Positions 1 through 46,187 of a stretch of DNA of 64,000 nt are shown here, piece by piece. Numbering within the stretch: position 1 is the first letter of the stretch; the number at the start of each line of letters is the position of its first letter. A program made the position numbers and the translations under genes. The DNA is from a virus, in the IMG/VR virus record IMGVR_UViG_3300036985_003583, positions 6,868-70,867 of that record. The stretch is one strand, 5' to 3'. The notes beneath the pieces are model-generated. The model was not told the origin of the DNA. It ran no database searches and saw only the letters and a program-made list of their open reading frames with translations.

Positions 1-4
1 GAAC

Positions 5-376
5 TTGTTGACCATGAACCCTTTGGTTTATACGTCACTTCTTTCACTATCTGAAGCTGATCGTCGCATAACAGATGAAAAAGGCATCCGTGGTACTTCT
101 GCTAAATACATCAACTACGGAGCTAAAAAGTTCGAGTTGGATCAAGCTTCTTGGATGAGAATGGACCGAGTTATCGGCCTTCCAAAAGATGCTATCCAAA
201 TGTACGGCGGAACTATTGATCCTGTTGAAGCTGGCGGCCAGAAAGAATTCCTTTCTCTCGTAGGCGGACGCAGAACTAATGCTGTAGAAAGCTACAACTC
301 AATTACTTCAGAATGCTGTATAGAGAACCTTCGTTCATGTTTTGTCGGCCATAATTTCCAATTCTCCTCTTTATAA
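5..376 (+). CDS. Probable major capsid protein, C-terminal part (begins before the window)
   Basis: Open from the window edge and followed by a strong terminator. It precedes the adaptor/nozzle genes, and terL at the far end implies a terL-portal-capsid order. The call is positional. Confidence 0.6.
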   Translation: MLTMNPLVYTSLLSLSEADRRITDEKGIRGTSAKYINYGAKKFELDQASWMRMDRVIGLPKDAIQMYGGTIDPVEAGGQKEFLSLVGGRRTNAVESYNSITSECCIENLRSCFVGHNFQFSSL

Positions 377-421
377 TTGACAGTTAACTTAGAGTAGAAT
401 AACTCTGAGTTAAATCAGACT

Positions 422-450
422 AAAGCAGTGGAGAAATTCACTGCTTTTTT
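422..450 (+). terminator. Rho-independent terminator
   Basis: AAAGCAGTG-gagaaatt-CACTGCTTT stem running into a T tract, downstream of the capsid stop. Confidence 0.8.
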
Positions 451-643
451 CATATCTAACCTAAAATAACATATCTACTATCCTCTTGACCTTTCCTTAT
501 AGAGAACGTCCACCGTAACGAGAAGCTTACCGAGTATAATATTCCCATTCCAGACTGATTCGTGCTATCTTATACAAGTTACCACTATAAACACGGCTTT
601 GCTGACTCTTCTGCAGCAGGAAGCTATTTTGAAAGGACTCGTC

Positions 644-1516
644 ATGAAAACTCCTAGCATGAATAAGTACCAAGAACTTGCTCTTGGAAAACACCTTAGC
701 GTAGGCGGAGCCGGAAATAACGGCTTACTTCTCAACGCTATGCAAAATGGCTTCTACGCTAACTTCCAAGGCTGTACCTTGGTTGAGAACGTAACTGCAA
801 CTCCCGGCCCAACTTTCGTACGTCTTTCTGTAGACGGCGACTTGGATCCTTACTACGTTTACGGCGTTAATCAGCTAATGACTTTGCGCGCATCTTCTGC
901 AACCGCCTGTGCTGCCGGATTCCCTAATGCAGCCGCTGTTGGTGATACTGGCGTTCTCCGCCTTACCACTGTTGATGCAAACGCTGCTGGAGCAGTAGCA
1001 ATGTTGCAAGAAAATGCTTTGTGGATGGCTCCTGCCAATGACTTCTCTGTAGTTTTTGACATTGCACAGTGGACGCAACGTAACAACGTCGTTGGAGTAG
1101 CTTTCTCTCAATTCGGCATCATTGGTACTTGTACTGTTACAGACCTTCAGGACTCTGCTAAGGTTCCTGCTTGGGTTGATGGAACAAATGACAACGCTTC
1201 TTGCTACATCACGTTGACCGGAAACCGTGGAACTTTGACTGTAGTAAGTGCAAACTTGGAACTTCGTCAGAACTCAGCTTCTTTCGAGATTCCAGCAGGA
1301 GCATTTACTGCAAGAATTGCTTATGGAGCAGGCGCAACTGGCGGGTCTCCTACGGTTTCTGTCTTCATAAATGACAGAGCTGTTGCCACTATCAAGACTG
1401 TGCTGACGGGGCCTTTCCAGTTATTTGCTCGTGCATGTAACGGAGCTAACTATCTACAGGCAACGCATACTCCAGCAATACTTGATATTGACACTATTGC
1501 AGTATCGATGGTTTAA
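644..1516 (+). CDS. Virion structural protein (decoration/head-fibre-like, beta-rich)
   Basis: ATG at 644 after AAGGA. Ala/Gly/Thr/Val-rich with a lectin-like-looking C-terminal half; directly after the capsid gene. Confidence 0.5.
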   Translation: MKTPSMNKYQELALGKHLSVGGAGNNGLLLNAMQNGFYANFQGCTLVENVTATPGPTFVRLSVDGDLDPYYVYGVNQLMTLRASSATACAAGFPNAAAVGDTGVLRLTTVDANAAGAVAMLQENALWMAPANDFSVVFDIAQWTQRNNVVGVAFSQFGIIGTCTVTDLQDSAKVPAWVDGTNDNASCYITLTGNRGTLTVVSANLELRQNSASFEIPAGAFTARIAYGAGATGGSPTVSVFINDRAVATIKTVLTGPFQLFARACNGANYLQATHTPAILDIDTIAVSMV

Positions 1517-1549
1517 TTACGGCTAACAAAGAAACGGAGAATTATTATT

Positions 1550-1930
1550 ATGGTATTTCCAATGGGCGCTAAAGCTCCAATGAGCAAGAAACCTAAATTC
1601 GACATGGGCGGAGATCCTAATGCCGATGATATCGGCCAACCACCACACGGCGAGCCTGATATGGATGATGAAGAGATCGACGGCATCATGGGTCAGGATA
1701 TGATGAATCCTGGCGAAGAAGGCAGCGAAGACGTTCTCGGCGCAGGAAATCCTCTGGAATCAGCTTTGGCTGAAGCAGGATTTCCCGGCGTAACTCCTGA
1801 GCAGCTAACTCAGATCGAAGCTATTCTAAAGCCCGTAGGCGCTCCTAAAGCCCCTATCGGCAAGCCAGCTCCAGCAATCGGTGGCGCTACTGCCGGGGGT
1901 GTTCTAGGCTCAGATATTGCAAGTCTTTAA
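1550..1930 (+). CDS. Hypothetical acidic/Pro-Gly low-complexity protein
   Basis: GGAG RBS, 126-aa ORF. Confidence 0.65.
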   Translation: MVFPMGAKAPMSKKPKFDMGGDPNADDIGQPPHGEPDMDDEEIDGIMGQDMMNPGEEGSEDVLGAGNPLESALAEAGFPGVTPEQLTQIEAILKPVGAPKAPIGKPAPAIGGATAGGVLGSDIASL

Positions 1931-1936
1931 AGTTTA

Positions 1937-1997
1937 GAGGTGCATCCAAACTTTGGAGGCATCTCGACTAAGGGATCGGCTCAAAATTTGAGCTGAT
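1937..1997. repeat. Two adjacent imperfect palindromes with AAANTTT cores
   Basis: GAGGTGCATCC-AAACTTT-GGAGGCATCTC (1937-1965) and ATCGGCTC-AAAATTT-GAGCTGAT (1975-1997), between convergent genes. Confidence 0.85.
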
Positions 1998-2554
1998 TAA
2001 AGATCGTCTAGCTCGTCCAACTCTTCCATGAATGAAGATATTTTCAATTCGATGCCGTGAATCACATCACGGCTGTGTTGTATCTTGCCTTGGAGGAGAG
2101 CAGCCTCAGAGTGGTCTTCCTTCAATACTTTTTGTTTCTTAGGGAATCTTCCGCCTTCATCAACCAAGATGTAGCCGTATTTCCCTTTACCTTCGTTTTT
2201 GTGTGCTTGTGCTGTTTCCAATTTTAAATTCCTTTTGATTAGATTTTGTTGAAACTCCGCGAACTTTGAAAGTATACGCTTTCGGAGAACTTTGTGCTCT
2301 TCAGTTTTCAGGTTGAAAGAGCTTACCAATAACACGAATCCTGTTTCCGTTAGAAGGCACATCGGTTGAGTTTTGTTTTGCTCATTTTTATAGGAGGACT
2401 CCTGAAAGTTTAAGGAGTCCTCGCCGTTTTCTATGAGGGTGGCAATACTCTGAAGTACGTTATCGTGACGACGCTCAAACATTTCAGCAACGGTCAAAGA
2501 GCTGATGCAATTGACGCCAACTTCGTTAGAAGTGAATAAAACTAAATCGGACAT
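1997..2554 (-). CDS. rha: Rha-family phage regulatory protein
   Basis: SSLTVAEMFERRHDNVLQSI...LNFQESSYKNEQNKTQPMCLLTETGFVLLVSSF matches the Rha signature; likely ATG at 2554. Confidence 0.9.
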   Translation of the reverse strand: MSDLVLFTSNEVGVNCISSLTVAEMFERRHDNVLQSIATLIENGEDSLNFQESSYKNEQNKTQPMCLLTETGFVLLVSSFNLKTEEHKVLRKRILSKFAEFQQNLIKRNLKLETAQAHKNEGKGKYGYILVDEGGRFPKKQKVLKEDHSEAALLQGKIQHSRDVIHGIELKISSFMEELDELDDL

Positions 2555-2713
2555 GTGGAAATCTTTTCTAGAAGCCGGAAAGCATTGACTCCCGATTACA
2601 AACTGTGTAAAACAGACGTAGGGCGGAGGTTGCTTCAATTACGGCCGCCCTTAGGGTGCATACTCTCTTTACACCACTAGACTCCAAAGATCAAACCACA
2701 TTTCATCACCAAT

Positions 2714-3256
2714 TTATAAACTACTTTCGCTCATAAATACCGTTGATAGTATTTCTGTTGCATGAAAGAAGTCAGATGGAAATACCTTTGACTTCGGCTC
2801 ACACAGAAGCGTTCCAGCTCGCTGATAAGCCCAGTAAACCAGTTCAGAGCAGTAATACTCATCATCTTCTGTTTCAAATTCATAATCATAAAGACTTCCA
2901 ACCTCATTCTGTGCATTCATAGCTGCCTGTAAATGCACAGAATCTATAGCTCTTAACCGTAATACGCAGATATAGTCTTTGGTAGCAACGAAGTCGAAGA
3001 GATTAGTTTCAACGACGCCTTCTCCGACAGCTTCAATTACAGTCTTTCTCATTGATACAATAGCAGCATGTTTCCAGAATTTAGGGATAAAAACATTTGT
3101 CAGATGCCAGCGGATTCTAGACAGAAGAATATCCCCGGGCTGGATAGCAGCCTTTATGGCGTCAAAGTCCTTACCTTTAATAAGCCTTACGCTAAAAGGA
3201 GCGTGTATTTTTCCTACAAGACGGGTAATCGGTTCTACGAAAGATAGAAATTTCAT
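2714..3256 (-). CDS. Permuted papain-like NlpC/P60 amidase (YiiX/YebB-like)
   Basis: QPGDILL, WKHAAI (catalytic His first), VIEAVGEGV, YDYEF...YYCSELVYWAY (catalytic Cys later). Confidence 0.85.
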   Translation of the reverse strand: MKFLSFVEPITRLVGKIHAPFSVRLIKGKDFDAIKAAIQPGDILLSRIRWHLTNVFIPKFWKHAAIVSMRKTVIEAVGEGVVETNLFDFVATKDYICVLRLRAIDSVHLQAAMNAQNEVGSLYDYEFETEDDEYYCSELVYWAYQRAGTLLCEPKSKVFPSDFFHATEILSTVFMSESSL

Positions 3257-3374
3257 GGCGACTCCTCTATAATAGAAACATGGCTTATTTGTACACTCTG
3301 TCAATTATACACACAGCGTGGTAATATTGGTACATTCCGTTAATTTGGGAAACATTCAAAGAAGGAAACTAAGG

Positions 3375-4106
3375 ATGCTAAGAAATCACGGCGATAGCAG
3401 AAGAAGAGTTACTTTGGCGCAAAAGGTAGGCAATCAGCCAGCTGATCCTACCAATATTTATGACGATATATCTCCAGAAGAGTTAGACATTTTGATGCTT
3501 AACGCTGCTGGAATGGCTAATCCTGACTTCAACCCTAGCGTTAAGGGTGAAGGCGACTTATCTTCTGACGACGTAATGGGCGAGTACAGCGATTTTGGCG
3601 CAAGAGATGTCAACGAAATGTACAGTGGTCTTTCAGGACGACTTACCAAGAGCGCGAAAGAAGATAAAGCACGTAAATCCGGTTCTGGCGAAGGCATGAG
3701 AGGTTTTGAACAATTCTCCGACGCAGGCATGGGAGAAGAGATCCCAGAAGGCGTTATAAGCGACGTAATGGAGCCTAGTAGCGAATCTGAAGACTTAATA
3801 TATGGAACAACTGAAGCCCCGTCACGAGGCGCTGAAGGCGGAAAAGAAGGAGCCCGTGAAGATGTTAGAAGCGGACGACCCATTTCAGGCGGAAAAGAAT
3901 CAGAAGATATTTATGACGTCCTTGGCGGAGGCGGAAAGCCTAAAGCCATCATCAAAGAAAAAGAGAAGACAGCCGTTATCCCTGGAGGAATGGCAAAGAA
4001 TCCATTCCCTGAAGACAGCAAACTTGGAAAAATGTTCCGAGCAATCGAAGCCAGAGGAAAGCCAAAAGGTCACGGACTTGGGCAGGTAAGACGCCCAAGG
4101 TTTTAA
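3375..4106 (+). CDS. Hypothetical acidic/Gly-rich, probably disordered protein
   Basis: Long ORF with an AAGGA RBS upstream of ATG 3375. Confidence 0.65.
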   Translation: MLRNHGDSRRRVTLAQKVGNQPADPTNIYDDISPEELDILMLNAAGMANPDFNPSVKGEGDLSSDDVMGEYSDFGARDVNEMYSGLSGRLTKSAKEDKARKSGSGEGMRGFEQFSDAGMGEEIPEGVISDVMEPSSESEDLIYGTTEAPSRGAEGGKEGAREDVRSGRPISGGKESEDIYDVLGGGGKPKAIIKEKEKTAVIPGGMAKNPFPEDSKLGKMFRAIEARGKPKGHGLGQVRRPRF

Positions 4107-4787
4107 TTAGTCTTCTGGGAACGAATCCCAGTAAGCTCTATCTTTGTCGTAAATATCTAACAATTCATCATCGCCAATTTCTCTAGAAGGTTTCTTTACA
4201 GCCTTTGATTTCGCATAGGCACTTACCAAGTCATTGTATTGATCTCGTCTTTCGCGCTTAGCCTGTAAATTGTGAACATTACCGACAGCATCTGACTTAG
4301 GGTAAGCCGTATTCTTACCAATCCAGTCGTCGCTGAGAACGTCTAACGGGCTAGGTCTTCCAGTACCGGTTGGCACGTTATCAGGGCTTGGCGGGTCTCT
4401 AAATAACCTCTGTAAACTCTCACTCCGAGGGGGACGGGCTGCAGCGCGTTCTGCCGCTTTCCTACCTAATCCTCTTAATCCGTAAGCTCCAGCAGTTGCC
4501 GCCATCAAGGCAGCGTCAAAACCTTCGTCATCGGGACGAACTTGCCCAGAACCGCCTTTTTGAAGGAATTCCTGTTCCCAGTTTTCAACTCCGTAAGGAT
4601 CAATAGGTTTGTCTTTCCATTTACCCATTATAGCTCGTTCAGCCTCTGTCATGGGCGAGATGGAGCTGTCGTCAGTGTAGTAGTCGGATCCTACGGGAAC
4701 CTGCTCCGGAACCTTCGTTGAAGGCAGTTTAGCCATATCCGCATATGGAAGTTTACGAATCTTGTTTCTTATACTTATTCCCGGCAT
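4107..4787 (-). CDS. Hypothetical protein
   Basis: 226-aa ORF with AAGGGG RBS; stop abuts the convergent gene. Confidence 0.65.
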   Translation of the reverse strand: MPGISIRNKIRKLPYADMAKLPSTKVPEQVPVGSDYYTDDSSISPMTEAERAIMGKWKDKPIDPYGVENWEQEFLQKGGSGQVRPDDEGFDAALMAATAGAYGLRGLGRKAAERAAARPPRSESLQRLFRDPPSPDNVPTGTGRPSPLDVLSDDWIGKNTAYPKSDAVGNVHNLQAKRERRDQYNDLVSAYAKSKAVKKPSREIGDDELLDIYDKDRAYWDSFPED

Positions 4788-4846
4788 TACAGACCCCTTC
4801 TAGCTGTGATAATATCAGAGTGATATTAACATGAGGTAACAAATAT

Positions 4847-6127
4847 ATGAATACCCTTGAACTTGTAAATGCAGTACGGGACTTGACTTTTGAGTACCAA
4901 GCTGACCCCATTTCGGATGAGTACATTGTAAGCCGCTTAAATGAAGCTTACCGATTTGCTTACAATCATTTCGTAAAATCCAATGAGGAACTTTATGGTC
5001 AGATCAGCTTGCTGCAAGTAGTTTCAGGGCAGTTCGAGTATGACATGCCAGAAGAGCTCTGGAACAAACGAATCGAGACAATGCTGATTCCTACGCCTCC
5101 GAATGAATCGACGCAGCCTTGGGGTTGGACTAAGGTTCGGAAGGCTCAGTACAGCCAGAGCTACCCTTACCAAACTAACAGGATAAAAACTTACTATCCC
5201 GAATGCTGGTCTACGTTGAATAACAAGATCTATATCTTCCCAGCCCCGTTGATAGCTTATCAGGCTAAACTGATAGTTTCTCGCAAGATCCCTATGATGG
5301 GAGTACTCGGTGGAAAGATAACGGAACTTCGCAACAACGTAATCTATCTAGACGATGTGACAAACGATGCTAGAATAGTGGATTCTGTCGGAGATAATTC
5401 TCTTGCTTTTATCTCGGTAGCTGACGCTAACACTGGAGAAGTGAAAGCTTTATGGAGCTACAGCGCAGTAAGTACTGTAGACAATACAATCACTTTACAA
5501 ACATCTCCCCGTAAATATGCAAAACTTATTAAGGGGACAACGGTTTCTCAGATAACATATACTGCGGTAACTGCCGGAACTACAGCAGGAGAAGCAATAT
5601 CCGTTGTTTATACTTCAGACTTAAATCCCGCAACCTGTACCGTAAACGGAAACATAATTACAGTAAAACTGGAAACCGCAGTTACTACTGCTGACAATGT
5701 TGTTACTTTAGTAACCGCTGCCGCAGCAACTCTTGTTACAGCCGTTAGAACTCTTGGACTTGGAAACGTAGTTCAAGTAGCAAATCCTGCAGAATTCCTT
5801 ATAGGAGGTGAGAATCTGTACAAGAATAAGACTGTTGACACTCTCCCCGGAACCCAATGGGGCTCGATAGAAATAGACGATCTTGTTTGCTTCGGATACG
5901 CAACAGGAGCTTCAATATTCGGAGAGTCAATTGATACCTTCTTAACAGATTGGGCAGTAATGAGAATTAGAGGATCACTTAACGAGACAGATCCTGAAAC
6001 AACTAACAGCCTTAAACTACAGCTGCAAGAGCTTACCGGAGACCTCGGCGGACGTAATCTTGGATTAAAGATTAATATGACTGAGCGCGCCAACTATGGA
6101 AGCAAAACATTTAGAAGGAGTTTCTAA
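4847..6127 (+). CDS. Head-tail adaptor / tail tubular protein A-like, with an inserted domain
   Basis: N-terminal MNTLELVNAVRDL...ISDEYIVSRLNEAY and GQFEYDMPEEL...KIYIFPAP are typical of phage adaptors; directly upstream of the nozzle-like gene. Confidence 0.7.
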   Translation: MNTLELVNAVRDLTFEYQADPISDEYIVSRLNEAYRFAYNHFVKSNEELYGQISLLQVVSGQFEYDMPEELWNKRIETMLIPTPPNESTQPWGWTKVRKAQYSQSYPYQTNRIKTYYPECWSTLNNKIYIFPAPLIAYQAKLIVSRKIPMMGVLGGKITELRNNVIYLDDVTNDARIVDSVGDNSLAFISVADANTGEVKALWSYSAVSTVDNTITLQTSPRKYAKLIKGTTVSQITYTAVTAGTTAGEAISVVYTSDLNPATCTVNGNIITVKLETAVTTADNVVTLVTAAAATLVTAVRTLGLGNVVQVANPAEFLIGGENLYKNKTVDTLPGTQWGSIEIDDLVCFGYATGASIFGESIDTFLTDWAVMRIRGSLNETDPETTNSLKLQLQELTGDLGGRNLGLKINMTERANYGSKTFRRSF

Positions 6128-9100
6128 TGGCCATAACTTCTGGAAACACTTCTATCATTCCAATTAGCTCCAAGAGTGGCATAGACGGCTCAACATCTAT
6201 ACCTACAATTGGTGAAGGCTATTGCATTGACATGGAGAATACAGACCTAAGCACTGCAAATGAGATAAAGAAACGAGCTGGGTACGTGAGATACTGTGGA
6301 TCCTTGCCTGTGAAGATCTCGAATACTGGGGAGACGTATCCCGCAACAACTGATGCTACTTTCGTAGAAGCTACGGCATTAACTAACCCAGAAACCACAA
6401 CTCCGTGTAGATGGGTTAAGTATAATAGTTCTCTTCTCACTATTGCCGGTGGCGGAATAGCTATCCTTAATAAACAAATAGGATTTATGGCTGATCAGAC
6501 TGAGAACGCTAACTACGTCGTTGTAGAACTTACCGGCCCAATAATGGGCAGGTTCGGCATGGTTGAGGATCACGAGTGCTATGCGTCCAACGCCACAGGA
6601 ACTGCGGTTCTTTATCGCCCTATAAAGATACTATCTTCTACTATCTTCATAGCCGAAGCTAGCAGATTGCCTGCAGCTACGGGCGCTGTAATGCCTATAA
6701 CAAGTAAACCATCCGCCCCGGAGTTTAATAGAATAACCAATGTTGTATTTGACGCAAATACTCACATTGTTACAGTTTATACTGACGAAGTAGTTTCCTC
6801 AGAAATGATAGTTTATTCCCCTTTACTGGGGCCAAGTTCTACTATCACGGCTATCAGCTTTGGCGTTAGTTTTTCAGTAACTTTTGCCGGAGCCTTCCAT
6901 ACTACGGATATTAGAAAGGACTTCTTCAAGCTGTACTGGAATTCTAGTAGCGTTCAAAGAAAAGATCGGGCAACTACTGGATACGCGGAAGCCTATAGCT
7001 CAGCATCAGCCTCTTTAAACTCTGAGACTCGTGTAGGATTTACCGGAACAGATAAGCTAATAATCTACGGAACGGGAGTTAAAACAGCTCCGACAGCACT
7101 AGAGTCATTCTATTCTTATTCTGAGCAGACTAATAGAGTTGTAGCAGTTGTTGGGGGTAGAGGGTATCTTGCGCCATATCCAGAGATACGTACAGATAAA
7201 GGCCCATATGTTACTGCCCCCCCGAATGTACTTGTTGCTCATGCGTTTATGCCAAAAGTAAATAATAGATACTCAATAAACTATATAGGCACAGCTAATG
7301 CATATGTTGTCGGAGATACTGTAACCATTAGAAGAGAATCGTCATCTTATGATATGCTTATAGTCGCATTAGATACGGATATAATTTATGTGACCGGAGA
7401 CGTACCTACGTCTATTACAGCTGGAGAAACTCTGCACTGGACTAGGTATACCAGAAAAATAATATTGACAACTACGAGTGTGATCGGAGCCGACTCCGTT
7501 GTATTAATAGATGGTATTTCCCCACATGAAGTAGCTTATTATGAAATAGCTACTAAAACAGTTATGTTTGACTCTCCAATATTGTTTTCTTCTAATTCTA
7601 ACATTCAATTATATGGCTCATGGAAAGGGTATTATGCCGCTGGGGTTACGGGAGCTATTGAAAGATTTGAAACTTTTCAAAGGGCTTATGGGGACATCAG
7701 TGCAGTAAAATCTGCAGGTAGGTTTACTTATGGTGCGTATATTGCTGACCAAACCGGAGTGTTTAGAGTAGATGCTTTGCGATCTGCAGAATGTACAATG
7801 GCGGCTCCTCAGATACTTGGGATACGCTCTATTCCGGGAAGCATCGGAACTTTCCCAATAGTAATAGGCGGAAATAATACAAAAATGGGGGAAGCCGTTG
7901 GAGTTTCTTTTACTTTTGTATTCTATAATGCAGATGGATTTAGAGCAGAATCAGAGTATTCTCCGTTAAGTGATGGCTGGGCTACGCCAAGAGCAGCAAT
8001 TAGTGGGGCGGACTTATCAGAACTTCTTGAATATAGGGTCAAATATCCTACTAAATACCCGAGCGGGTATGATCTTTTTCTATGTGCATATCTTGCACAA
8101 TCTACCGGAGAGGCTAATTCCCAGACACAATACTCCCTATATAAAGTAATAAAACTTTATCCTAACGGTGTAATAGGGGTAACAACTAAGCCATATACCG
8201 GAACTTCGGCCATGTCTGTCCTTATTGGGGACGTGTCAGTGACATCTTTGTCTGGAGCAGTTCTTACTGACTTTACCTTCAAAACAGTGACGACTCGTCC
8301 ACCTATTGCCAAACATATGGTATCCTCTGAGAGTAGACTAATTGCAGCTAATCTGAGATCTCATCCATATATAAAGGTAACTCCGTCAAAAGTATTTACC
8401 AATAAAAAATTCTCGTCATTCATGTCTATGACCACTTTGAATAATACTGCTTTACAGTATTCTGCATTTTTTGCCCCTCTTGGAGTAGTGCCGAATACGG
8501 AGCATCTCCCTCTTTGGGGTGATGCTCCGATAATTAAAGACAATACTGAGGCTACGGCAACTTCCACGAATAGAAATACGGGGGTTGTGACTGGAAATAC
8601 ATATGCCGTGGATAATGCTACTCCGGCCTACACTGTTTATGGTGTTGATTATAAAAGATCTTATTGCTCAGTATATGGGGACGATGGCGCTCCTGTAACC
8701 CCTCTCACAATAACTTACACAGATAACTCCAATAGATTCTCAAGTGTAACATGGGCTGCTCACGCATCAACCACTCTGGCAGTATTGAGGAAAGTTCAAC
8801 GAAATAAGGATTTATCAGCACTTCCCATTCCTTTTGAATCAGAAGTATTTCAATATACCTTAGCGTCATTGAACTATTTCTCATCAAGCAAGTGGACTGA
8901 CTCTGACTTAGATGCGGCTACAAATGCGGTGGCATTGAATAACACAACCTTCATTGCCTGCGAGAACTGGTTTGACGGCATGGGGGAGTTAAAGAATTCT
9001 CCTGCTAATCTCTCTGCAATATTTGTCACTTTAACCGGCGGTACAGTAGGGGATGATGTTCCGGGAGGAGTGGCTATTCAAAGCTCCCGTCCAGCCGGAA

Positions 9101-11589
9101 ACCCTACAATCACTATGACTATAGACGTTGTTACCTTTCCAGACGCAACTTGGAACTGGGGAGTAGCTGGGGATTTAGTAAATGGGAGTTATGTAGTAAT
9201 TCATGGTATTGGCACTACAATATCTGTTACAGGGGCAGGGGATACAATACTTTCTTGGGATAAAGATCTTATCTGGAAAGCAACATATTCAGCAGATATG
9301 TCCGTAGCGGGCGTGAAGGCTGTATTCTTATTGTCTCCACATCTTGTAGGATCTAGAACGCTAGCTACTGCAAACGCTATAGATGCTGCCCAATTTAACC
9401 CTATAAGTGTTGGGTCATTAAAAGCGGAAACAACTTCTGGAACAAGTACTTTAATACAGATATTTAAGCCCAAGCAAGGAACTGGAGGCGCAACTATCTG
9501 CAACTCCACAGTAGCCTTAACTGGCTTTAGCCTCCCTACTGACTACATTGTAGTGGCTCAGACTGGCATAGGTACTGGAGTATTTAGCGCATTAGACCAA
9601 AGAGCCGTAATAGAATTATCTGAATTTGAAGGTGCGGGGCAAATTGGCTCAGACTTATCCCGAGCAAATAGCGGAAACTTTCCTCAATTAACCGACGTTT
9701 CTTGGGTTGTTTCTGAAGTTACCAACGCAAACTCTGTAAAGATGAAATCTCTATCTACGGCTATGGTTTCCCCTGCAGTTATGACGAGTACCTTAACGCT
9801 AGCTGCACAGAGCTGTATAGTAAATGTAACCAAATTAATTACGGTCACTGGAAATAAGTTTAAGATACTCATAAATAAGTACCCGTCCTACCCAGCATCC
9901 ATACCAGGAATTGCTACTCCTTTGGGGGTAAATGACATGCCTTCAGGAATGGGATTCTTACTCATCAGAGGCTTGTCACACCAAAGCGCCTGCTTGGAAT
10001 TATCCGGCCCTATCGGAAATACAGGAGTGGTCACACTGGGAGCTGGCGGAACTACAAACTATAGCGCAATGGAGTTTGAATTACCTTATGACGCGGCAAC
10101 TTCCACATACGCCACTATAGACTACAGTAAGATAACTGGCCTTAGATACTCTTGCTATGTAAGAGCAACTGACTATACAAAGATACCAATACCTGTACCG
10201 AGAACAATGTCCAGTACAGCGACTCTGCAGGATTTAGCGTTGCCTTTATATAGTCAAACAGAGAATATCGGTGAGAGTATTCTCCTTCAGATCTCGAAAA
10301 GACTTTTAGAAGTATTCCCTCAAGCAAGCATTAATCCGGAAGGATCTGTGGCTACCTCTAAGGAAATGTCTGCAAATACCTGCATAATACCTTTTACCAA
10401 AGGAGATGGAACGGCAATAACTATTTATGCTACGTCTGCTTTTGAGATAAAAGGTGCAGATTCTGCCAAAGCTCCTAAAACCTATACTGGGCAAGGGGTA
10501 ACTACTCTAGTATCTCCTTATCCAAGGCAAGATAATAGAGGGGCATCGTTAATCTGGACAGATGTTGTTTCTGCTACAAACGTTGCGGCGCAATCGTTGC
10601 CATCGTTTAAAGAAGGAAACTACCTTGAATTAAATACAGAGGATGACTCGGATATAACCGGATTAACCCCATTCCAGAACGGTTGCTTGATATTTAAAGA
10701 TAATTCTATCTGGCGTCTGACGTTCAATGACTCTAATGTTGGAACATTCCAAAGAATCCAGTCAACCGTTGGCAGCTCCTCAGCCTTCAACTTGGTATCA
10801 AATCTTTCCCAGTGCTACTTCACCAACAATCAAGGAGTCTTTAAGACTGACGGAAGTACCGTTGAACACATACTTAAACTCAATAGAATCTATGACAATC
10901 AAGTGAGCAAAGCTGGCTACCTGCTCCGCCGCAGTGCAGGCTACGTTGATATGAATAAGAAGGTTGTACACCTTGGAGTTCCTTACGTATCCAAATATAC
11001 CTCCCCGTTAAATGCGAACGATGGCGAGGCTAATTACTGCTTTAACGACGCTGTTTACGGCTGGAACATGAACGTCGGTATCGACGCTGTAAAATGGGCC
11101 GAAGCTAACGGAAGCTACTTCTTCATTTCAGCCAGAGGTGACGTTCACAGAGTTAGAGATGAACAATCGTTAAGCCGTTTCCGAGATGGCGAACGTCCTA
11201 TCATTATGAATTTGAAGACAAGGTATGTAACGGCTGAAGACACTAACAGATTCAAATTCTGGAGAAACCTAATATTCCAATTCGATGATACAACCAATTA
11301 CAGCTTCTACACTTACTACAGCTCCAACTATAACTCTACAGAATATCCTCTGGAGTTCTATCCTAGAGTCAAGGCAGCAAGCTATAAAGGCATTGCAACC
11401 TATGGCACAGAACACTTTATGAAGATATTACGAGAAACTTTTGCTGAAAGGGTAAACAGCTTGTCACTTCGTTTCTACGAAGGAAGCATTGATACTGATG
11501 CAAAGATCTTTGGAGTATTCGCAGAAGGCTGGCTAGGAAATACTAGACTAATTTCTCAGAAGGCCACTCCTGGCGGCGAGAGGACTTAG
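6127..11589 (+). CDS. Tail nozzle / tail tubular protein B-like (DNA stabilisation), 1820 aa
   Basis: N-terminal ENTDLS..EIKKRAGY and C-terminal DITGLTPFQNGCLIFKDNSIW...VGSSS..CYFTNNQGVFKTDG propeller-type motifs of T7 gp12/P22 gp10-like proteins. Confidence 0.7.
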   Translation: MAITSGNTSIIPISSKSGIDGSTSIPTIGEGYCIDMENTDLSTANEIKKRAGYVRYCGSLPVKISNTGETYPATTDATFVEATALTNPETTTPCRWVKYNSSLLTIAGGGIAILNKQIGFMADQTENANYVVVELTGPIMGRFGMVEDHECYASNATGTAVLYRPIKILSSTIFIAEASRLPAATGAVMPITSKPSAPEFNRITNVVFDANTHIVTVYTDEVVSSEMIVYSPLLGPSSTITAISFGVSFSVTFAGAFHTTDIRKDFFKLYWNSSSVQRKDRATTGYAEAYSSASASLNSETRVGFTGTDKLIIYGTGVKTAPTALESFYSYSEQTNRVVAVVGGRGYLAPYPEIRTDKGPYVTAPPNVLVAHAFMPKVNNRYSINYIGTANAYVVGDTVTIRRESSSYDMLIVALDTDIIYVTGDVPTSITAGETLHWTRYTRKIILTTTSVIGADSVVLIDGISPHEVAYYEIATKTVMFDSPILFSSNSNIQLYGSWKGYYAAGVTGAIERFETFQRAYGDISAVKSAGRFTYGAYIADQTGVFRVDALRSAECTMAAPQILGIRSIPGSIGTFPIVIGGNNTKMGEAVGVSFTFVFYNADGFRAESEYSPLSDGWATPRAAISGADLSELLEYRVKYPTKYPSGYDLFLCAYLAQSTGEANSQTQYSLYKVIKLYPNGVIGVTTKPYTGTSAMSVLIGDVSVTSLSGAVLTDFTFKTVTTRPPIAKHMVSSESRLIAANLRSHPYIKVTPSKVFTNKKFSSFMSMTTLNNTALQYSAFFAPLGVVPNTEHLPLWGDAPIIKDNTEATATSTNRNTGVVTGNTYAVDNATPAYTVYGVDYKRSYCSVYGDDGAPVTPLTITYTDNSNRFSSVTWAAHASTTLAVLRKVQRNKDLSALPIPFESEVFQYTLASLNYFSSSKWTDSDLDAATNAVALNNTTFIACENWFDGMGELKNSPANLSAIFVTLTGGTVGDDVPGGVAIQSSRPAGNPTITMTIDVVTFPDATWNWGVAGDLVNGSYVVIHGIGTTISVTGAGDTILSWDKDLIWKATYSADMSVAGVKAVFLLSPHLVGSRTLATANAIDAAQFNPISVGSLKAETTSGTSTLIQIFKPKQGTGGATICNSTVALTGFSLPTDYIVVAQTGIGTGVFSALDQRAVIELSEFEGAGQIGSDLSRANSGNFPQLTDVSWVVSEVTNANSVKMKSLSTAMVSPAVMTSTLTLAAQSCIVNVTKLITVTGNKFKILINKYPSYPASIPGIATPLGVNDMPSGMGFLLIRGLSHQSACLELSGPIGNTGVVTLGAGGTTNYSAMEFELPYDAATSTYATIDYSKITGLRYSCYVRATDYTKIPIPVPRTMSSTATLQDLALPLYSQTENIGESILLQISKRLLEVFPQASINPEGSVATSKEMSANTCIIPFTKGDGTAITIYATSAFEIKGADSAKAPKTYTGQGVTTLVSPYPRQDNRGASLIWTDVVSATNVAAQSLPSFKEGNYLELNTEDDSDITGLTPFQNGCLIFKDNSIWRLTFNDSNVGTFQRIQSTVGSSSAFNLVSNLSQCYFTNNQGVFKTDGSTVEHILKLNRIYDNQVSKAGYLLRRSAGYVDMNKKVVHLGVPYVSKYTSPLNANDGEANYCFNDAVYGWNMNVGIDAVKWAEANGSYFFISARGDVHRVRDEQSLSRFRDGERPIIMNLKTRYVTAEDTNRFKFWRNLIFQFDDTTNYSFYTYYSSNYNSTEYPLEFYPRVKAASYKGIATYGTEHFMKILRETFAERVNSLSLRFYEGSIDTDAKIFGVFAEGWLGNTRLISQKATPGGERT

Positions 11590-11591
11590 GG

Positions 11592-11625
11592 CTGGGTGCC
11601 AAATTGGCACCTAGGTTTCTGTCTT
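11592..11625 (+). terminator. Palindrome / possible terminator after the nozzle gene
   Basis: CTGGGTGCCAA-A-TTGGCACCTAG followed by a T-rich tail. Confidence 0.5.
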
Positions 11626-19354: not shown

Positions 19355-22300
19355 GTGGCTAAACCGTTTGACTTTCGGGAAATACTTGAGGGTAATAAAA
19401 TAGCTGAATCTGAAATAGCCGGAGGTGATACGGGGTTAGAAACCTTTACTCCTGAAGAACAAGAATTAGCTAAAAAGACAATGGAAGCTTACGCTGTTGG
19501 GGAAGAAATTCCTTTAGAAGGAGAAATCTCTACAGAGCTTCCGCCGGAAGAAGAGTTCACTATGGAAGACTTGGAAGCGGCGAGAGCTGCTGCAGCTCCG
19601 GTAGAAGAGTTTACTACTGAAGACTTGGAAGCGGCTAGAGCTGCTGTGGCTCCTGTAGAAGAATTTACTACAGAGGACTTAGCCAAGGCTAAAGAAGCTA
19701 TGGCTCCTGTAGAAGAATTTACTACAGAGGACTTAGCCAAGGCTAAAGAAGCTATGGCCGCTCCTTATGCTGAAGCTTACACTCCGGGAAAGATGTCACC
19801 TCAGACACAGAAAGAAGTCGAAGCTTCCGTTAAAGAACGAGAGAATAAACCTCTGTCAAAAGTCTTGGGCGTCGGTTCAGTCGGAACCGAGTCTATCCTG
19901 ATGGAAGGGATTAACTCTGTAAAGAGGGGAGCGATGCACGTTTGGGAAGCTTTTGGCGGGAAAGCTCCTGAAGGCGCCTATGATCGTCCAGAGGAAGACG
20001 TAAGCAAAATAATAGACCCCGCCACTGGTGCCGTAGCAGATCTAAGATCGTTAATGGTAAACCCCAAGATAGGGACGGCAGCAAAGGAAAAAGCTCTGGA
20101 CGAGGTAATTAACTCACAGCTTGGCTTGCCTCCGGGAGAAGCTGCGAAAGGTAGAGAAGACGCTATCGGTTCTGCATCCATAGGAGGCATGGTTCAGGCG
20201 TTAGATTCTTTGGTGACGCAAGGCGCAGCTACAGGCTGGATCAAATACGGTGTGTCGAAGTTTACCGACAACAAGCTTCCAATGCCTCCGGATTACTTCT
20301 CACCAGAAGCTAAAGCGTATATAGCCAACAACCTTAACTCCGGAAAAGCTATCGGGGTTCATGGTGTTGAAGTGAAGATCCCAGAAGGTAGCAACCCTGA
20401 AGAAGTAATGAAGAAAATGTTTGATAACGTCGTAGCCACAGCGCACGACCTTTACGCAATGGGAACAACGTCAGCGGCGTTGGAGAATGCTGGTTTGCCT
20501 TTGATGTTTGCAGGAAACGCTCTGAAGGGTCTTTTCGCTGCTGCTGAGCTTACCAAAGGCGAAGCGGCTATGAAAGCTATGCTTGTCGCTGCAAACCCTC
20601 TGACAGCCGTATTCGAACGCTATGGAGTTAAGCTCTTGGGTGTTGGAGCAATGTCAAAGCCAGCACAGTTTCTAACTCGTGTTGGAGTAAGCGGCGCAGA
20701 GGCAGCAGCCATGACACCTCCGACAACGGCCGGAGGCTTTGACCCTGCAACGATGGCAGCGTCTGCTGCAGTCGGAGCCGGAATGCACGTTGGCGTTGCT
20801 GGCGTGGGAAAGGTCTTAGGAAGTTTATCCAAAAGAGGGGCTAAAGTAATTCACACTCCTGAAGAACTTGTCCATATTGAAACTCAGAAACAAGCTATGG
20901 CGATGGTCAAGACTTTGCCTGAAGATAGAGTGCAGGCAATTATCAGAGGCGAAGAGCAGGTAGCTCCGGAACTTCGTACAGAAATCCGTAACGTCGTAGA
21001 AGCGAAACAACTCTTTAGCGACTTTAACCCCGGAACCGTAGAGAAGATCCTAATAGAGGGTGCAGATATTCCGGAGATACGGGCTCAACTTGACGCTATA
21101 ATATCCCATACTCGCCAGATGAGTCCGGAACAAAGAGCAGCCCACTTAGCCTGGAAGAAGGCGTCGAGGCAATTAAAGGCTCCGGAGCTAAGGTCTGAAG
21201 CGAGGAAGTTATCTGAAACTGTAGAATACTCTGCTGCTCTTGGCGACGATGCCTTGATGCAGAAGATGATGGCTTCAAATAACCTTCAGAACATGATCGA
21301 ACCTTATGGACAATTAAAAAGATCTTATCTAAACAATTCCTCTTCAATGTACCGAAGTGAGATACAGGATATTTTACAGTCTGGATTAGAGGGATACAAT
21401 GTAGACAAAGCCGCTTACCTTAAACTTACTCCAAAGAGTGCTTTGCATATAGAAAATGTAATCCGTATGCAAACCGAAGACTTAGACTATAATAAAGCCT
21501 TGGAGAAACTAAAGGCCAATAGTTACAAAGTAGACAGTGCAGGGATTAAGGTACAGGATACCCTTGATAAAGTTGTAGCAAAGACCCAAGATCCCCGAGT
21601 AGTTGGCTTGAAGGCACATATTGATCAGGCGATAAAAGCCAACTCTACCATCAACCTAGACTATGCTATAAAGGAATTAACAGACCTTGGCGTTGAGACT
21701 GGCGAACACGCTCCGGGCTTGCTTGCTACTCAAATATCTAATTATAATAGACTTCACAACAACCACATAGACTTAAAACAGGATATGCAGAACGCTGTTA
21801 CCCACAACGCTCTCCTTGAGCGACGTAAGATAAGCACTAAAGCCAACACTTCTGCAGGCCATAATCTGCTAAGAACTGCCGCCGTCTATGCTGCTCCCGA
21901 CTCGATAGCAGCTAGATTTAATGAACAGATTCAACACGTAGCGTTGGATTCCAAAGTACCGCAAGAAATTAAAGACCTTTCAGCAGAATTGATTGGAGAA
22001 GCTTCTCAGAGAATCTCCACTGGAATGCCTATTTCTGAAGGTAAAATACAGTTTCTGCGCGACTCCATAAAAGGAATTAAACAAGCTAACGATGTAAGGC
22101 CGATGCTTGATGCAATGGATCACTGGAATGTTGAAGCAAAAGCTTTATCTGTCCTTAGAGCGCAAATGGGGGCTTTGCAGGAAACTCCGGGTGGAGTTCT
22201 CGAGCTTCTACCTTCATTCCGCAGAGCTGGCGATGTAATTGTAAGTCCGCAGAACATGAGAAGACTGGAATACTATCATCAGTATCTATCTTCTGTATGG

Positions 22301-25300
22301 GTTGACGCTTTAGACGGAAAACCTATTAATGAGAAAGTTAAGCAAGATCTGTACCACATGGCTTTCGGCAGTGAAGAGCAAAAGATCAAGATAGTTATGG
22401 ATCCGACGTCTCCAATATCCACCGATATTCATTCGGATAACATGCTTAGGTCGTTACAAGTTTACTCTAGAGATCTTCTAGACTCTTTAAACGACTTGCA
22501 CATGATAGCCTTTGGGAAACGATTAGACGTTGAAATGTTCTTGGCTTACCTGAGTAATCCCGCCAATGGTGACAACGGTAACATGGCTGTAGAAGCTATG
22601 GGTTACAACGTAGCGAGATACTCTGATAAGTTAGCTCTGTGGAATAAAGTTAAGGAGGAAGGAAACTCATTCCTGCTCACCCTTGCCAGCCCTGAATTCC
22701 TAGAAGGATTAATGACAAAGAAGAGCTATATCAGCTGCGGTGTCGGCTTTGAAGGAATAGCTACTGCACATAGAGAATCTGTACAAGAGCATATGAATTT
22801 ATTCAGTGACGACGTAGCCCACTTAGAAAAGCAGATGCTTAAACGCGGCTGGGGATCTGAAGAGTTTGGTACAAAGGTTAACAAACTTCAGGGAGCTATG
22901 GACAAAGGCGGAACAGGAATAAGCAAGCTACGTCAGGGTTTCTTTGTATTAAGACAAACCGGAGAGACTATTGATACCGAGCTGGGGTCGGTAGCTAAAA
23001 GAATATTTACTAACGAAGACCTGTTACGACGTATGAATGACGCTTCCATAAAGGACAACCGTCCTGTGGGATCAGAGCTGATGCGGGAAGTTATCAATGA
23101 ATTGATTCCTGCTAAAGAGGCAGCGAAAATCATAGCCAGAAACGGCCATATTGATATGTTCAATTACTTCTCTGCTACCGTGAAGAATGCTCCAAAGGAA
23201 AGCACTGTAGCTATCTGGAAAGATGTCTACGAATGCTTGGAATTCCTCAACGGCATGAGAATAAAAGGATACAATAACCACGTTAGATCCGTATCGGAAT
23301 TAAACATCCGTCACAGAAATACAGGTTACGTGCAAGAACCTTTACGCTTTAGAGAGGATTATGTTTATACCAAGAAGATGAGTAAAGGCCGTGTAATAGA
23401 TTATGTCGATAACATATTCTCTGCCGAAGCCAACTTAACTAAACGATTTGGCTCGTCACTGCAAGGCCAGCTTGATAAAGCCGACTCCCTTGGCATAGAC
23501 TTAATGCATCCGATTACTGCTACAATTATGGATACTCAATCTATGATTAGAGATACAACAGCTTGGCACGCTAAGACTACGCTGCAGGAATACGGGGTAC
23601 TTCTCCACAGCCTTGGCTATGAAAAGCTATCTAGTGCTCTGCTTAACGTGCTAGAGACAAACACTCTCGGTAAATTAAACAGTAGAGTTGTTCAAGAGGG
23701 ACTTAGAAGTGCTTATGAAGGTATCTTGAAAGTACCTTATGTTAACTCAATTATGCTTACCACTGTTGCTGCTGCTAAGTTAGTCGGAGCTAAGGCAATG
23801 CAGACTTCCTTATCTTCTATTAGGAGTCTAAGCAGGTCGTTCATATCCCAGCCTATAATGAACTTCGTCTATGGTGGAAAGAGTACAACTGGTAAGTTCT
23901 TCGGAAAGGTATTACAATACGTATTCTTCAAGAGTACTCGTAACAGACTAGCCTCACCTGACGGCCCAATAGCTCCAGAACTGCATAGATTAGTCCGAGA
24001 AACCCTGCGTGGATATATCGACGTAAACAATAGAGCGCAGATGGAAGCCGTCAACGACGCGCTATTACTGTCAGGAAAGACCCGTGGCGGTTTGACTGTA
24101 GCCAATAAGGTAGCAGTAGTTTCTGATAGACTTATCGATCAGGCATTTGAAAAGATGACGCAGATAGCTAAAGAGAATTTAGAGTCAGCAATGTCATTAC
24201 AGATATTAGAGACAGGAGCTTCAGTCTATACCAAGGCTTTGGGAATACTTAAATCAGAAGGCGGGGATGCTGCAATAAGTTACCTAGGCCCAGAAGTAAA
24301 AACCTTGAAACAGACTCAACTCTATGCGCTCGTGTCTTTGATGGGTAAAGGATTAAAGTCTGGAGATGTCTACATGGCTGCAGACCCTTTCCTGAAGATG
24401 TACCACACTAACAACGTAGGCCGTTTTGGTGTTCATGCGTCACCAGCCTTTATCCGTGACTTTATTCAACCTATCTTACCTGCATCCGCTACCTTTTATG
24501 CTGCGATAACCAATAACGTATACCGAGCCATGAGTCAGTCTGTGGAATTAGGCGCAGAAACTGTAGCTAAGGTACGGGGAATATTCTCTGAAAAGACTGG
24601 ACTTCCTATCAATACAAGCACTCGAGTACTTACCACGCTACTTATGGGCGGCGGCATGGCTTACATGGCTAGAATAATGAAAGACGGCGTTGCAGACACA
24701 TGGTTTGGAAGTCAATTAGATGACAAGCAAACGATGGAACAGGCTCCTTTGGGAAGAGCCTTCCTACACGGAACCGGAATAGATTTGTCCACAGCGTTGC
24801 CTTTCCCTGAGCTGCTTAACCTTATAAATTCTGGGATGAAGGGGGATGTTGCCGGAGTTAAGGATGTATTCTTTAAAACCTTCCTAGACATTGGCAAGCA
24901 AAAGAATACTCCGTTTGCTTCTGCGGATCTGCTTAACATGTACAAGGCTTTGTCTACATTAAATGAGATAACTGGTGATGTGTTTCCGATTCTTAACCTC
25001 CTGCCGTCGAAGATAACCGATGCGAAGAAAGAGCTATCTTCTGCCACTGAAGAATTCCAGAACAACCTGGCTAACGGGATGTCGATAGACGTTGCTCAAG
25101 GTAAGGTGGATAAAGCTACAGAGAAGATACGGGATTTAGAAAACACTTACTTCACTCACGGTTGGGTAGCTCTGGCTGATCTTGTAGTGCAAAACATGCC
25201 TATCGCCAGCATAGTGACGGCGGGAACCCATCCGTTTGCAATTGCTTCCATGTACCGCAATGAGCAATCCAAAGCAGCTATGGAAGGTGAAATGCACAGA

Positions 25301-25750
25301 GGCATGGGCCGCGATGACTACGCAGGCTGGTTCAACATGCTTCAGCAATCCTACGGCATAACGGACATCCACGACAAGGGCAGCAATGCAGCGCGTAAGT
25401 GGTACGGAGCTGTTTATGGCGAATACGGCAGCAATGAAATGCCAGCTAATCTCCGAATGACTCAAGAGGAAATAGATTACAATATAAAGATGGCATTGAA
25501 GTGGGACGGCCTAATGGTTGATACTGATATGTGGTTAAACTACATGGTTAAGAAGGGGAATATAGAAAAACTTGGAGGCTTTAACGTCGGAGGCAGCTTG
25601 AAAGATGGAGGCTTACTGGAAGTTATGAAAGACAAACTCCATAAAAGAACCTCGCCGATTCCTCCGCCGAATCGCCCAGTTTATCCAGAAAACCCTGTGC
25701 GTCAGTTACTGCGGGAGACTAAACTACCCGATGAAAAGAAGCCTCGCTAA
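19355..25750 (+). CDS. Very large internal virion / ejection protein (2131 aa)
   Basis: Last and largest gene of the structural cluster; helical, with N-terminal acidic repeats. Confidence 0.6.
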   Translation: MAKPFDFREILEGNKIAESEIAGGDTGLETFTPEEQELAKKTMEAYAVGEEIPLEGEISTELPPEEEFTMEDLEAARAAAAPVEEFTTEDLEAARAAVAPVEEFTTEDLAKAKEAMAPVEEFTTEDLAKAKEAMAAPYAEAYTPGKMSPQTQKEVEASVKERENKPLSKVLGVGSVGTESILMEGINSVKRGAMHVWEAFGGKAPEGAYDRPEEDVSKIIDPATGAVADLRSLMVNPKIGTAAKEKALDEVINSQLGLPPGEAAKGREDAIGSASIGGMVQALDSLVTQGAATGWIKYGVSKFTDNKLPMPPDYFSPEAKAYIANNLNSGKAIGVHGVEVKIPEGSNPEEVMKKMFDNVVATAHDLYAMGTTSAALENAGLPLMFAGNALKGLFAAAELTKGEAAMKAMLVAANPLTAVFERYGVKLLGVGAMSKPAQFLTRVGVSGAEAAAMTPPTTAGGFDPATMAASAAVGAGMHVGVAGVGKVLGSLSKRGAKVIHTPEELVHIETQKQAMAMVKTLPEDRVQAIIRGEEQVAPELRTEIRNVVEAKQLFSDFNPGTVEKILIEGADIPEIRAQLDAIISHTRQMSPEQRAAHLAWKKASRQLKAPELRSEARKLSETVEYSAALGDDALMQKMMASNNLQNMIEPYGQLKRSYLNNSSSMYRSEIQDILQSGLEGYNVDKAAYLKLTPKSALHIENVIRMQTEDLDYNKALEKLKANSYKVDSAGIKVQDTLDKVVAKTQDPRVVGLKAHIDQAIKANSTINLDYAIKELTDLGVETGEHAPGLLATQISNYNRLHNNHIDLKQDMQNAVTHNALLERRKISTKANTSAGHNLLRTAAVYAAPDSIAARFNEQIQHVALDSKVPQEIKDLSAELIGEASQRISTGMPISEGKIQFLRDSIKGIKQANDVRPMLDAMDHWNVEAKALSVLRAQMGALQETPGGVLELLPSFRRAGDVIVSPQNMRRLEYYHQYLSSVWVDALDGKPINEKVKQDLYHMAFGSEEQKIKIVMDPTSPISTDIHSDNMLRSLQVYSRDLLDSLNDLHMIAFGKRLDVEMFLAYLSNPANGDNGNMAVEAMGYNVARYSDKLALWNKVKEEGNSFLLTLASPEFLEGLMTKKSYISCGVGFEGIATAHRESVQEHMNLFSDDVAHLEKQMLKRGWGSEEFGTKVNKLQGAMDKGGTGISKLRQGFFVLRQTGETIDTELGSVAKRIFTNEDLLRRMNDASIKDNRPVGSELMREVINELIPAKEAAKIIARNGHIDMFNYFSATVKNAPKESTVAIWKDVYECLEFLNGMRIKGYNNHVRSVSELNIRHRNTGYVQEPLRFREDYVYTKKMSKGRVIDYVDNIFSAEANLTKRFGSSLQGQLDKADSLGIDLMHPITATIMDTQSMIRDTTAWHAKTTLQEYGVLLHSLGYEKLSSALLNVLETNTLGKLNSRVVQEGLRSAYEGILKVPYVNSIMLTTVAAAKLVGAKAMQTSLSSIRSLSRSFISQPIMNFVYGGKSTTGKFFGKVLQYVFFKSTRNRLASPDGPIAPELHRLVRETLRGYIDVNNRAQMEAVNDALLLSGKTRGGLTVANKVAVVSDRLIDQAFEKMTQIAKENLESAMSLQILETGASVYTKALGILKSEGGDAAISYLGPEVKTLKQTQLYALVSLMGKGLKSGDVYMAADPFLKMYHTNNVGRFGVHASPAFIRDFIQPILPASATFYAAITNNVYRAMSQSVELGAETVAKVRGIFSEKTGLPINTSTRVLTTLLMGGGMAYMARIMKDGVADTWFGSQLDDKQTMEQAPLGRAFLHGTGIDLSTALPFPELLNLINSGMKGDVAGVKDVFFKTFLDIGKQKNTPFASADLLNMYKALSTLNEITGDVFPILNLLPSKITDAKKELSSATEEFQNNLANGMSIDVAQGKVDKATEKIRDLENTYFTHGWVALADLVVQNMPIASIVTAGTHPFAIASMYRNEQSKAAMEGEMHRGMGRDDYAGWFNMLQQSYGITDIHDKGSNAARKWYGAVYGEYGSNEMPANLRMTQEEIDYNIKMALKWDGLMVDTDMWLNYMVKKGNIEKLGGFNVGGSLKDGGLLEVMKDKLHKRTSPIPPPNRPVYPENPVRQLLRETKLPDEKKPR
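19543..19760 (+). repeat. In-frame tandem repeat (PVEEFTTEDL... x4)
   Basis: Units of about 48-51 bp; the last two are identical at DNA level. Confidence 0.9.
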
Positions 25751-46058: not shown

Positions 46059-46187
46059 TAACTATCTTGCACGCGTGCCTGTGTGTACATACGTGCACGC
46101 GGGCGCATGTGCGCGTGTATGCGAGAGTCAATACCATATCAATGCTATTGGCGGTATCGCTGCCTTATCAAGGTATACTCATGTAAG

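Follow-up and report, generated by a model that had tools for sequence, protein, structure and literature searches.

The stretch of DNA analysed here, hereafter called the window, is 64,000 nucleotides (nt) long and corresponds to bases 6868-70867 of a 70,867-base-pair (bp) viral record with direct terminal repeats (IMG/VR record IMGVR_UViG_3300036985_003583). Near its beginning lies rha1, a gene for a regulator with a Rha domain. The codons of rha1 contain a long palindrome, and two further palindromes, referred to as orphan hairpins 1 and 2, are located in the gap between rha1 and a convergent gene. Rha-domain proteins are among the commonest phage regulators, although little is known of the DNA that they target or of how they act. 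We describe the coding palindrome of rha1, its counterparts in other Rha-domain genes and its relation to the orphan hairpins. The features of the locus are listed below in window positions, except for the last one.

1550..1930, + strand: gene for a protein of 126 amino acids (aa), from the list of open reading frames (ORFs); convergent with rha1, its end 6 nt short of hairpin 1
1858..2751: variable cassette, delimited by contig evidence; last 24 codons of the + strand gene, both hairpins, rha1, upstream spacer and last codons of the amidase gene
1937..1965: orphan hairpin 1, centre AAACTTT, located between the two convergent stop codons; arms match at 12/14 positions
1975..1997: orphan hairpin 2, centre AAAATTT, abutting the rha1 stop codon; arms match at 10/11 positions
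1997..2554, - strand: rha1, gene for a Rha-domain regulator of 185 aa; above the cut-off of Pfam PF09669 at 6e-19, with anti-repressor and Rha-like families in PHROGs
2394..2422, coding on the - strand: 29-bp coding palindrome GAGGACTCCTG-AAAGTTT-AAGGAGTCCTC (letters of the + strand); 14-nt arms match at 13/14 positions
2429..2467, - strand: codons of the predicted recognition helix HDNVLQSIATLIE (AlphaFold2 (AF2) model, helix 31-43)
2714..3256, - strand: gene for a C92 (YaeF/YiiX) permuted papain-like amidase, upstream of rha1; Pfam PF05708 at 3e-24
genome 4416-5111 (L008:4416-5111), - strand: rha2, a second Rha-domain gene just outside the window; PF09669 at 2e-13

The coding sequence of rha1 is taken as 1997-2554, because an ATG is present at 2554-2552 and the 185-aa protein is also found in the sequence collection. 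Against PF09669, rha1 scores 68.9 bits and rha2 51.2 bits, with a gathering cut-off of 29.9.

All three palindromes that an initial annotation of this DNA had pointed out were found where it had placed them. The - strand of 2394-2422 encodes EDSLNFQESS of rha1, corresponding to E46-S55 in the numbering of the model, and the two orphan hairpins fill the 66 nt that separate the stop codons at 1930 and 1997. With 14-nt arms and up to two mismatches, the two 29-mers are the sole palindromes in the window; 10 mononucleotide shuffles gave 0-2. Their common frame, GAG-N8-AAASTTT-N8-CTC, occurs twice in the window compared to an expectation of 0.25, a count reached in 4/100 shuffles. In the whole genome of 70,867 bp the frame is limited to the same two sites, and the reversed-pattern control gave 0. 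Palindromes centred on AAA(N)TTT with 7-nt arms and at most one mismatch number four in the genome, whereas 100 shuffles gave 0.04; three had been pointed out by the initial annotation and the fourth is in the second rha gene. The folding energy of the coding palindrome alone is unremarkable, since several other coding hairpins are equally stable, and it ranks sixth among the most stable 36-nt hairpins of the window. The most stable of these (46075-46110; -25.6 kcal/mol on the + strand and -9.3 kcal/mol on the - strand) is located at the start of a small + strand ORF.

The 29-bp palindrome of rha1 is one instance of an inverted repeat that is present at the same codons in many Rha-domain genes. 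Such genes were gathered from IMG/VR, bacterial genomes, named phages and metagenomes, and the column of the Asn-Phe pair (N-F) was mapped by a hidden Markov model (HMM) profile from alignment A1, which gave 87 ORF hits in 85 loci. Sixty distinct genes were kept; six were skipped for an indel at this column, and stretches identical over 60 nt or cut by the end of a locus were removed. In 50 of the 60 genes the best symmetry axis lies exactly at the boundary between the N and the F codon. A typical family palindrome reads xGA CTC CTC AAY / TTT GAG GAG TCx (the slash marks this boundary), with arms of about 10-11 bp and about 22-24 bp of symmetric sequence. As a null model, codons were resampled synonymously, given the protein sequence and the codon usage of each gene. 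The observed symmetry exceeds this null at p<0.05 in 40/60 genes and at p<0.01 in 29/60.

The two arms also change together. Paired cells account for 78.3% compared to 61.1% in shuffles, cells changed on both sides number 95 compared to 32.3, and neither value was reached in any of 500 shuffles. Compensatory, palindrome-preserving changes in rha homologues, which the initial annotation had anticipated, are therefore present, and the covariation score is 0.389 compared to 0.085-0.142 with the partners slid. Compensating changes that alter the residues on both sides comprise L/E (CTC/GAG), R/P (CGG/CCG), R/A (CGC/GCG), R/S (CGA/TCG), S/G (TCC/GGA) and H/V (CAC/GTG), as well as the triple T-E-R/A-L-S (ACT GAG CGC / GCG CTC AGT). 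Codon -k is the reverse complement of codon +(k+1); consequently the arms change together and the amino-acid pairs are dictated. The initial idea of hypervariable xxNFxx codons is not supported: the N-F pair does not vary, and LNFxESSY, the Rha motif with the highest conservation, is encoded by the right arm. Two further palindromes were seen at other positions in the collected loci. A second one with an AATTTT centre lies about 200 nt downstream, inside the rha gene of its locus (L010:1805-1824), and a perfect 20-bp palindrome, caattacAAATTTgtaattg, lies 274 nt upstream of the rha gene of another (L021:1018-1037).

In rha1 itself the right arm encodes the conserved LNFQESS. The left arm consists of the canonical DNA GGACTCCT placed one base out of the usual frame, so that EDSL is encoded where relatives have G/R-L-L. 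One extra base at the centre sets the canonical half-sites GGACTCCTtAA 1 bp further apart than in most rha genes. These half-sites are of the canonical type GGACTCCT.AA and are paired with a helix of the Asp type (see below). Against the synonymous-codon null, the rha1 palindrome has p=0.009. A related rha allele from another sample, in a contig of run X2 (window 2371-2407), keeps the arms GGACTCCT/AGGAGTCC around a centre that is 3 nt longer; after 2407 the contig has a loose end.

The second gene, rha2, contains a perfect 34-bp palindrome at genome 4942-4975. It encodes ISQDKFILAD, which aligns to EDSLNFQESS of rha1 with K-F matching N-F. The two diverged paralogues carry different palindromes at homologous codons, and the presence of a palindrome at the same codons in a second rha gene indicates that the position matters. 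There is no room for hairpins behind rha2, because its stop codon overlaps that of a convergent + strand gene (genome 3223-4419) by 4 nt.

Symmetry of this kind might arise without any function. Quasipalindromes generated by template switching during replication are likewise short inverted repeats with arms that change in concert, in coding DNA too, and they require no partner acting in trans. A self-perpetuating quasipalindrome would yield both the concerted arms and the codon choice biased towards symmetry that we observe. The left arm falls into a variable loop, so the protein would tolerate paired changes. The orphan hairpins would then be ordinary terminators that resemble the coding palindrome by coincidence, owing to their A/T-rich loop centres; another intergenic hairpin, at 11595-11611, also has an AAATT centre. 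What template switching does not predict, except through linkage, is a relationship between one base pair of the arms and one residue of the protein, which is described in the following.

In the AF2 model of rha1 (mean predicted local distance difference test (pLDDT) score 66), helix 31-43 is followed by strands 51-57 and 63-70. On this model the palindrome spans the loop that comes behind the predicted recognition helix, together with strand one of the putative beta-wing. Foldseek searches with the model gave only weak matches to winged-helix proteins (PadR/MarR, E at least 0.039), and a sequence search for a solved structure related to Rha1 found none. Across the family, canonical arms go with the helix sequence K-R-H-D-N-V-L and GACGGCTC arms with K-E-H-K-N-V-L. 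In 45 palindromic genes for which helix residues and base pairs were tabulated, only base pair k=6 follows the identity of the residue behind the invariant His; this pair joins base three of codon -2 to base one of codon +3. There is no exception. Asp (27/27 genes) and Tyr (2/2) go with C.G at k=6; Lys (11/11), Arg (1/1) and Asn (1/1) go with G.C; Ala, Gly and His (1/1 each) go with A.T. At k=3-5 and 8-10 no link to this residue was found. The gene of the window, rha1, carries Asp. In an overlapping and only partly independent set, the Rha ORFs with the exact canonical 22-mer, 20/21 have Asp and none has E-H-K. In Lys-type genes the residue of codon -2 varies (R, Q, K, E), hence charge pairing within the protein is an unlikely cause.

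Asp usually prefers contacts to cytosine, Lys and Arg to guanine. If the Rha helix reads the palindrome directly, just such a pattern at k=6 would be predicted. A tree from which the helix and palindrome columns had been left out has at least 12 changes of helix type. Of 8 branch-disjoint pairs, 7 show a switch of arm type along with that of the helix and 1 is a tie; only two of them are strongly supported, both sister pairs (L003/L004 and ES18/yong1).

On balance, we lean towards the view that the coding palindrome is an operator of the Rha protein itself, as the most likely explanation. A Rha dimer would read the palindrome as double-stranded DNA through its recognition helix, the rha gene would thus encode its own binding site, and this would allow autoregulation. 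The bound dimer could also be a roadblock to transcription through the gene. With 29 bp in rha1 and 34 bp in rha2, both palindromes are dyad-symmetric and of the size of an operator. In addition, rha1 is antisense within a + strand late-gene block that begins with a portal-like gene, which might be a place for such a roadblock. The proposal of the initial annotation that Rha-bound sites mediate autoregulation is favoured for the coding palindrome by the link between helix and base pair; for the orphan hairpins, whose half-sites differ from those of rha1 in sequence and spacing, it is not supported. Template switching, with no partner to account for the k=6 link, is in our estimation unlikely, albeit the alternative that we take most seriously.

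A wider proposal is considerably more tentative, and we put it forward as possible yet doubtful. The Rha family as a whole would read an operator in its own linker and wing codons by a code of one residue and one base pair, with free-standing copies, perhaps including the orphan hairpins, as targets. This simple code, which would largely set the specificity, would match Asp to C.G, Lys or Arg to G.C and small residues to A.T, and protein and site would switch together.

Several observations speak against an operator in the rha codons. In rha1 the half-sites are spaced 1 bp wider than the canonical ones, and in its closest homologue (70% identity) the peptide at this position is DGGLLNFEESS, which is incompatible with the palindrome. 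Many loci were collected by peptide patterns including LNF[QE][EV]SSY, and among genes found without such patterns just 9/19 reach p<0.05 at the mapped column. In four divergent genes, three of them within those 19, the palindrome is shifted 10-30 nt upstream. The tree is poorly resolved: 27/56 inner branches are open, and only 2 independent pairs are on starred branches. Helix and palindrome are about 50 nt apart, and their association could result from the exchange of one linked block of about 75 nt. What the orphan hairpins have in common with the coding palindromes is limited to centre and end triplets, and they are thus not evident Rha sites. Finally, the consensus of integration host factor (IHF), WATCARNNNNTTR, has no match in the window region 437-3465 around rha1.

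Copies of the canonical palindrome are also present outside rha. The exact canonical 22-mer was found in 26 IMG/VR loci, 21 times in Rha ORFs and 5 times outside any Rha ORF. Non-coding copies of this rha-internal element therefore exist. The 5 records with a free-standing copy have no match to PF09669; three of them, with 14.5, 16.7 and 41 kb, are rated at least 97% complete. Similarity to Rha-like peptides around these copies spans only 8-20 residues, and three loci (L113, L116 and L117) contain relic fragments of rha with little beyond the palindrome. Template switching leaves exact canonical copies in rha-less records unexplained, with the restriction that this sample was chosen by an exact match to the 22-mer. 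If the sites are functional, the Rha of one phage may act on another element, or block transcription, at free-standing sites in rha-less prophages or satellite-sized elements.

In one record without rha (L099:371-452), an 18-bp stem that is flanked by A and T runs on either side has the canonical palindrome as its core, and by its sequence this stem is a textbook bidirectional intrinsic terminator. This arrangement favours another interpretation, in which the palindrome is a hairpin of RNA, either in the rha mRNA or in an antisense late + strand RNA, and serves as a stop, a pause or a stabiliser, the orphans being more hairpins of that RNA. In agreement with this, the orphan hairpins fold at -31.8 kcal/mol on the + strand (z = -5.9) compared to -20.7 kcal/mol on the - strand (z = -3.7); they fold better on the + strand because two mismatches are G.U there. 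Among the non-Watson-Crick cells of the family, A.C, which is G.U on the antisense strand, occurs 19 times and G.T twice. However, coding constraints alone give an A.C share of 0.68, and the observed 19/21 has a binomial p of about 0.02 before relatedness is allowed for. This strand asymmetry of wobble pairs is largely a coding artefact and lends weak support to a role in RNA. Neither the coding palindromes nor the orphans have a U tract behind them, and a comparison of window 1-6000 with Rfam was negative up to E = 1. The rha genes of ES18 and yong1 share their strand with the neighbouring lysis genes, and that of yong1 also with the terminase gene, so no antisense transcript is expected from that operon. 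Nor does a role in RNA predict the helix-base link. We regard this interpretation as distinctly improbable for the coding palindrome.

The orphan hairpins are stable G+C-containing stem-loops at the 3' ends of convergent units, and most likely they act as 3'-end stem-loops that both of these transcription units have in common. Like intrinsic bidirectional terminators they are located between convergent stop codons; they differ in having no U tract. The absence of a poly-T tail, noted initially, was borne out, as neither hairpin has a T run on the + or the - strand, and both are missing from the list of the terminator scan. T-rich sequence does follow two other intergenic hairpins with loop centres of the AAATT type (TTTTTT at 422-447, GGTTTC at 11584-11619); the former is listed by the terminator scan and the latter lies beyond the scanned stretch. 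The kinship of the orphans to the coding palindromes is uncertain. In local alignments their similarity is not significant, with shuffles scoring as high in 0.06-0.20. They may nevertheless descend from Rha-type palindromes, which is conceivable because free-standing copies exist, one of them inside a textbook terminator. Rha-like peptides can be read from the orphans, as had been noticed, but this is a trivial outcome of the AAAC/TTT core.

Assembled runs provide information on the stability of the locus. This evidence consists of contigs, in which RNA ends and rare alleles are not visible. In runs X2-X4, from two other studies, relatives are about 90-95% identical over the flanks and there is no cover over 1936-2337. 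One contig of run X2 joins 1857 to 2752 with 110 other letters in between. Hairpins that persist unchanged in relatives lacking rha had been named as a case against a connection with the gene. The opposite was found: the relative without rha1 is also without both hairpins, and thus rha1 and the hairpins form one insertion/deletion cassette.

The initial annotation had further suggested a role for the orphans as alternative cassettes or relics, so that swaps into rha would diversify the loop encoded by the palindrome. For this, one may cite that the arms vary between rha genes in concert, that the X2 allele has the same arms with a longer centre, and that the relic rha fragments of L113, L116 and L117 are approximately of palindrome size. 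However, N-F and the right arm are the conserved part, and the similarity between orphans and coding palindromes falls short of significance, hairpin 2 being of different length as well. No recombinase or reverse transcriptase was named by Pfam in 7 proteins of window 599-6127 and 7 of genome 150-7243, or by PHROGs in 54 window proteins. Contigs of a source-like run show no swapped alleles, although contigs cannot reveal rare variants. Orphan AAANTTT palindromes had been expected to co-occur beside rha elsewhere; among the loci of the 60 mapped genes, hairpins directly behind rha are confined to this genome. A diversification system of this type is highly improbable.

Sites within the coding sequence of a phage regulator have a possible precedent. 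HK022 Roi, an antirepressor-class DNA-binding regulator, reportedly binds a site within its own coding sequence and inhibits lytic growth, as is said to have been described by Clerget and Boccard in 1996; the Roi site is said to adjoin an IHF site. By domain content Roi has ANT/KilAC (9.7e-33) and a weak N-terminal match to the Rha domain (2.5e-5, below the cut-off). No comparable palindrome was found in HK022 roi. Inside roi, near the codons equivalent to the Rha linker, AATCAATGATTTA (L088:1806-1818) is a full match to the IHF consensus. In contrast to the Roi site, reportedly next to an IHF site, rha1 has no IHF consensus nearby; the Rha site is also at fixed codons throughout the family and covaries with the recognition helix. 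A full-text literature search for a Rha coding palindrome or for self-binding of Roi returned nothing relevant. As far as literature searches show, a putative site at fixed codons across a whole family that covaries with the recognition helix has not been described.

To our knowledge, the IHF dependence of phi80, P22 and HK022 is the one classical phenotype of Rha and has never been explained. For rha of phages phi80 and P22, the known phenotype is IHF dependence of phage growth (PMC4936722). The P22-like Rha of ES18, which belongs to PF09669 as rha1 does, has the palindrome GGACCCCTTGAT/TTCAAGGAGTCC at homologous codons; the only IHF consensus of the ES18 locus is about 420 nt from it, at chance level. 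Coding palindromes are also known from the mitochondria of Nematomorpha, where both arms are translated as in Rha genes. Those palindromes are numerous and long (up to 284 bp), whereas Rha genes have a single element of about 24 bp at a fixed site in one family (PMC6649704).

Unlike the rha phages phi80 and P22, the phage of the window is uncultured and has a genome of 70.9 kb. Few window genes belong to known families (scans covered 7 proteins of window 599-6127 with Pfam and 54 window proteins with PHROGs; a second Pfam set comprised 7 proteins of genome 150-7243). The three palindromes are situated in a block of + strand genes that is broken by short - strand units and includes weak portal-like and adaptor-like matches. 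The gene at 1550..1930 is the last of the + strand block that contains a 305-aa ORF at 599-1516; its 126-aa product has no family in the Pfam or PHROG scans, and the 305-aa ORF has no relative in IMG/VR. The window has no match in the phage collection, and neither exact hairpin 1 nor the rha1-type palindrome pattern has one in IMG/VR. A metagenome scan for rha relatives gave distant Rha genes only, and a class-level genome search around G001 (Rha family in 1/301 genomes) added nothing.

Elsewhere in the window there are two giant + strand ORFs of 1820 and 2131 aa (6127-11589 and 19355-25750) without PHROG match, and two - strand HNH endonuclease genes (27072-27899, directly after a helicase gene, and 55199-55867). 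Outside the window, a 126-aa protein (L008:2815-3195, + strand) weakly resembles the Acb2/Tad1 hairpin domain (E = 2.9e-4, below the cut-off) and is possibly an anti-defence sponge.

Within the genome, rha1 and its hairpins constitute a mobile accessory cassette in the + strand late-gene block. For the family, the Rha palindrome is a clear case of a nucleic-acid constraint that dictates amino-acid pairs, a situation normally ignored by annotators and by models of coding-sequence evolution. If the operator is located in the gene, the target sequence of any Rha would be readable from its own gene, and protein and site would necessarily co-evolve, since part of the protein is encoded by the site. 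The Rha 'antirepressors', widespread but poorly understood, would thereby gain a defined DNA target.

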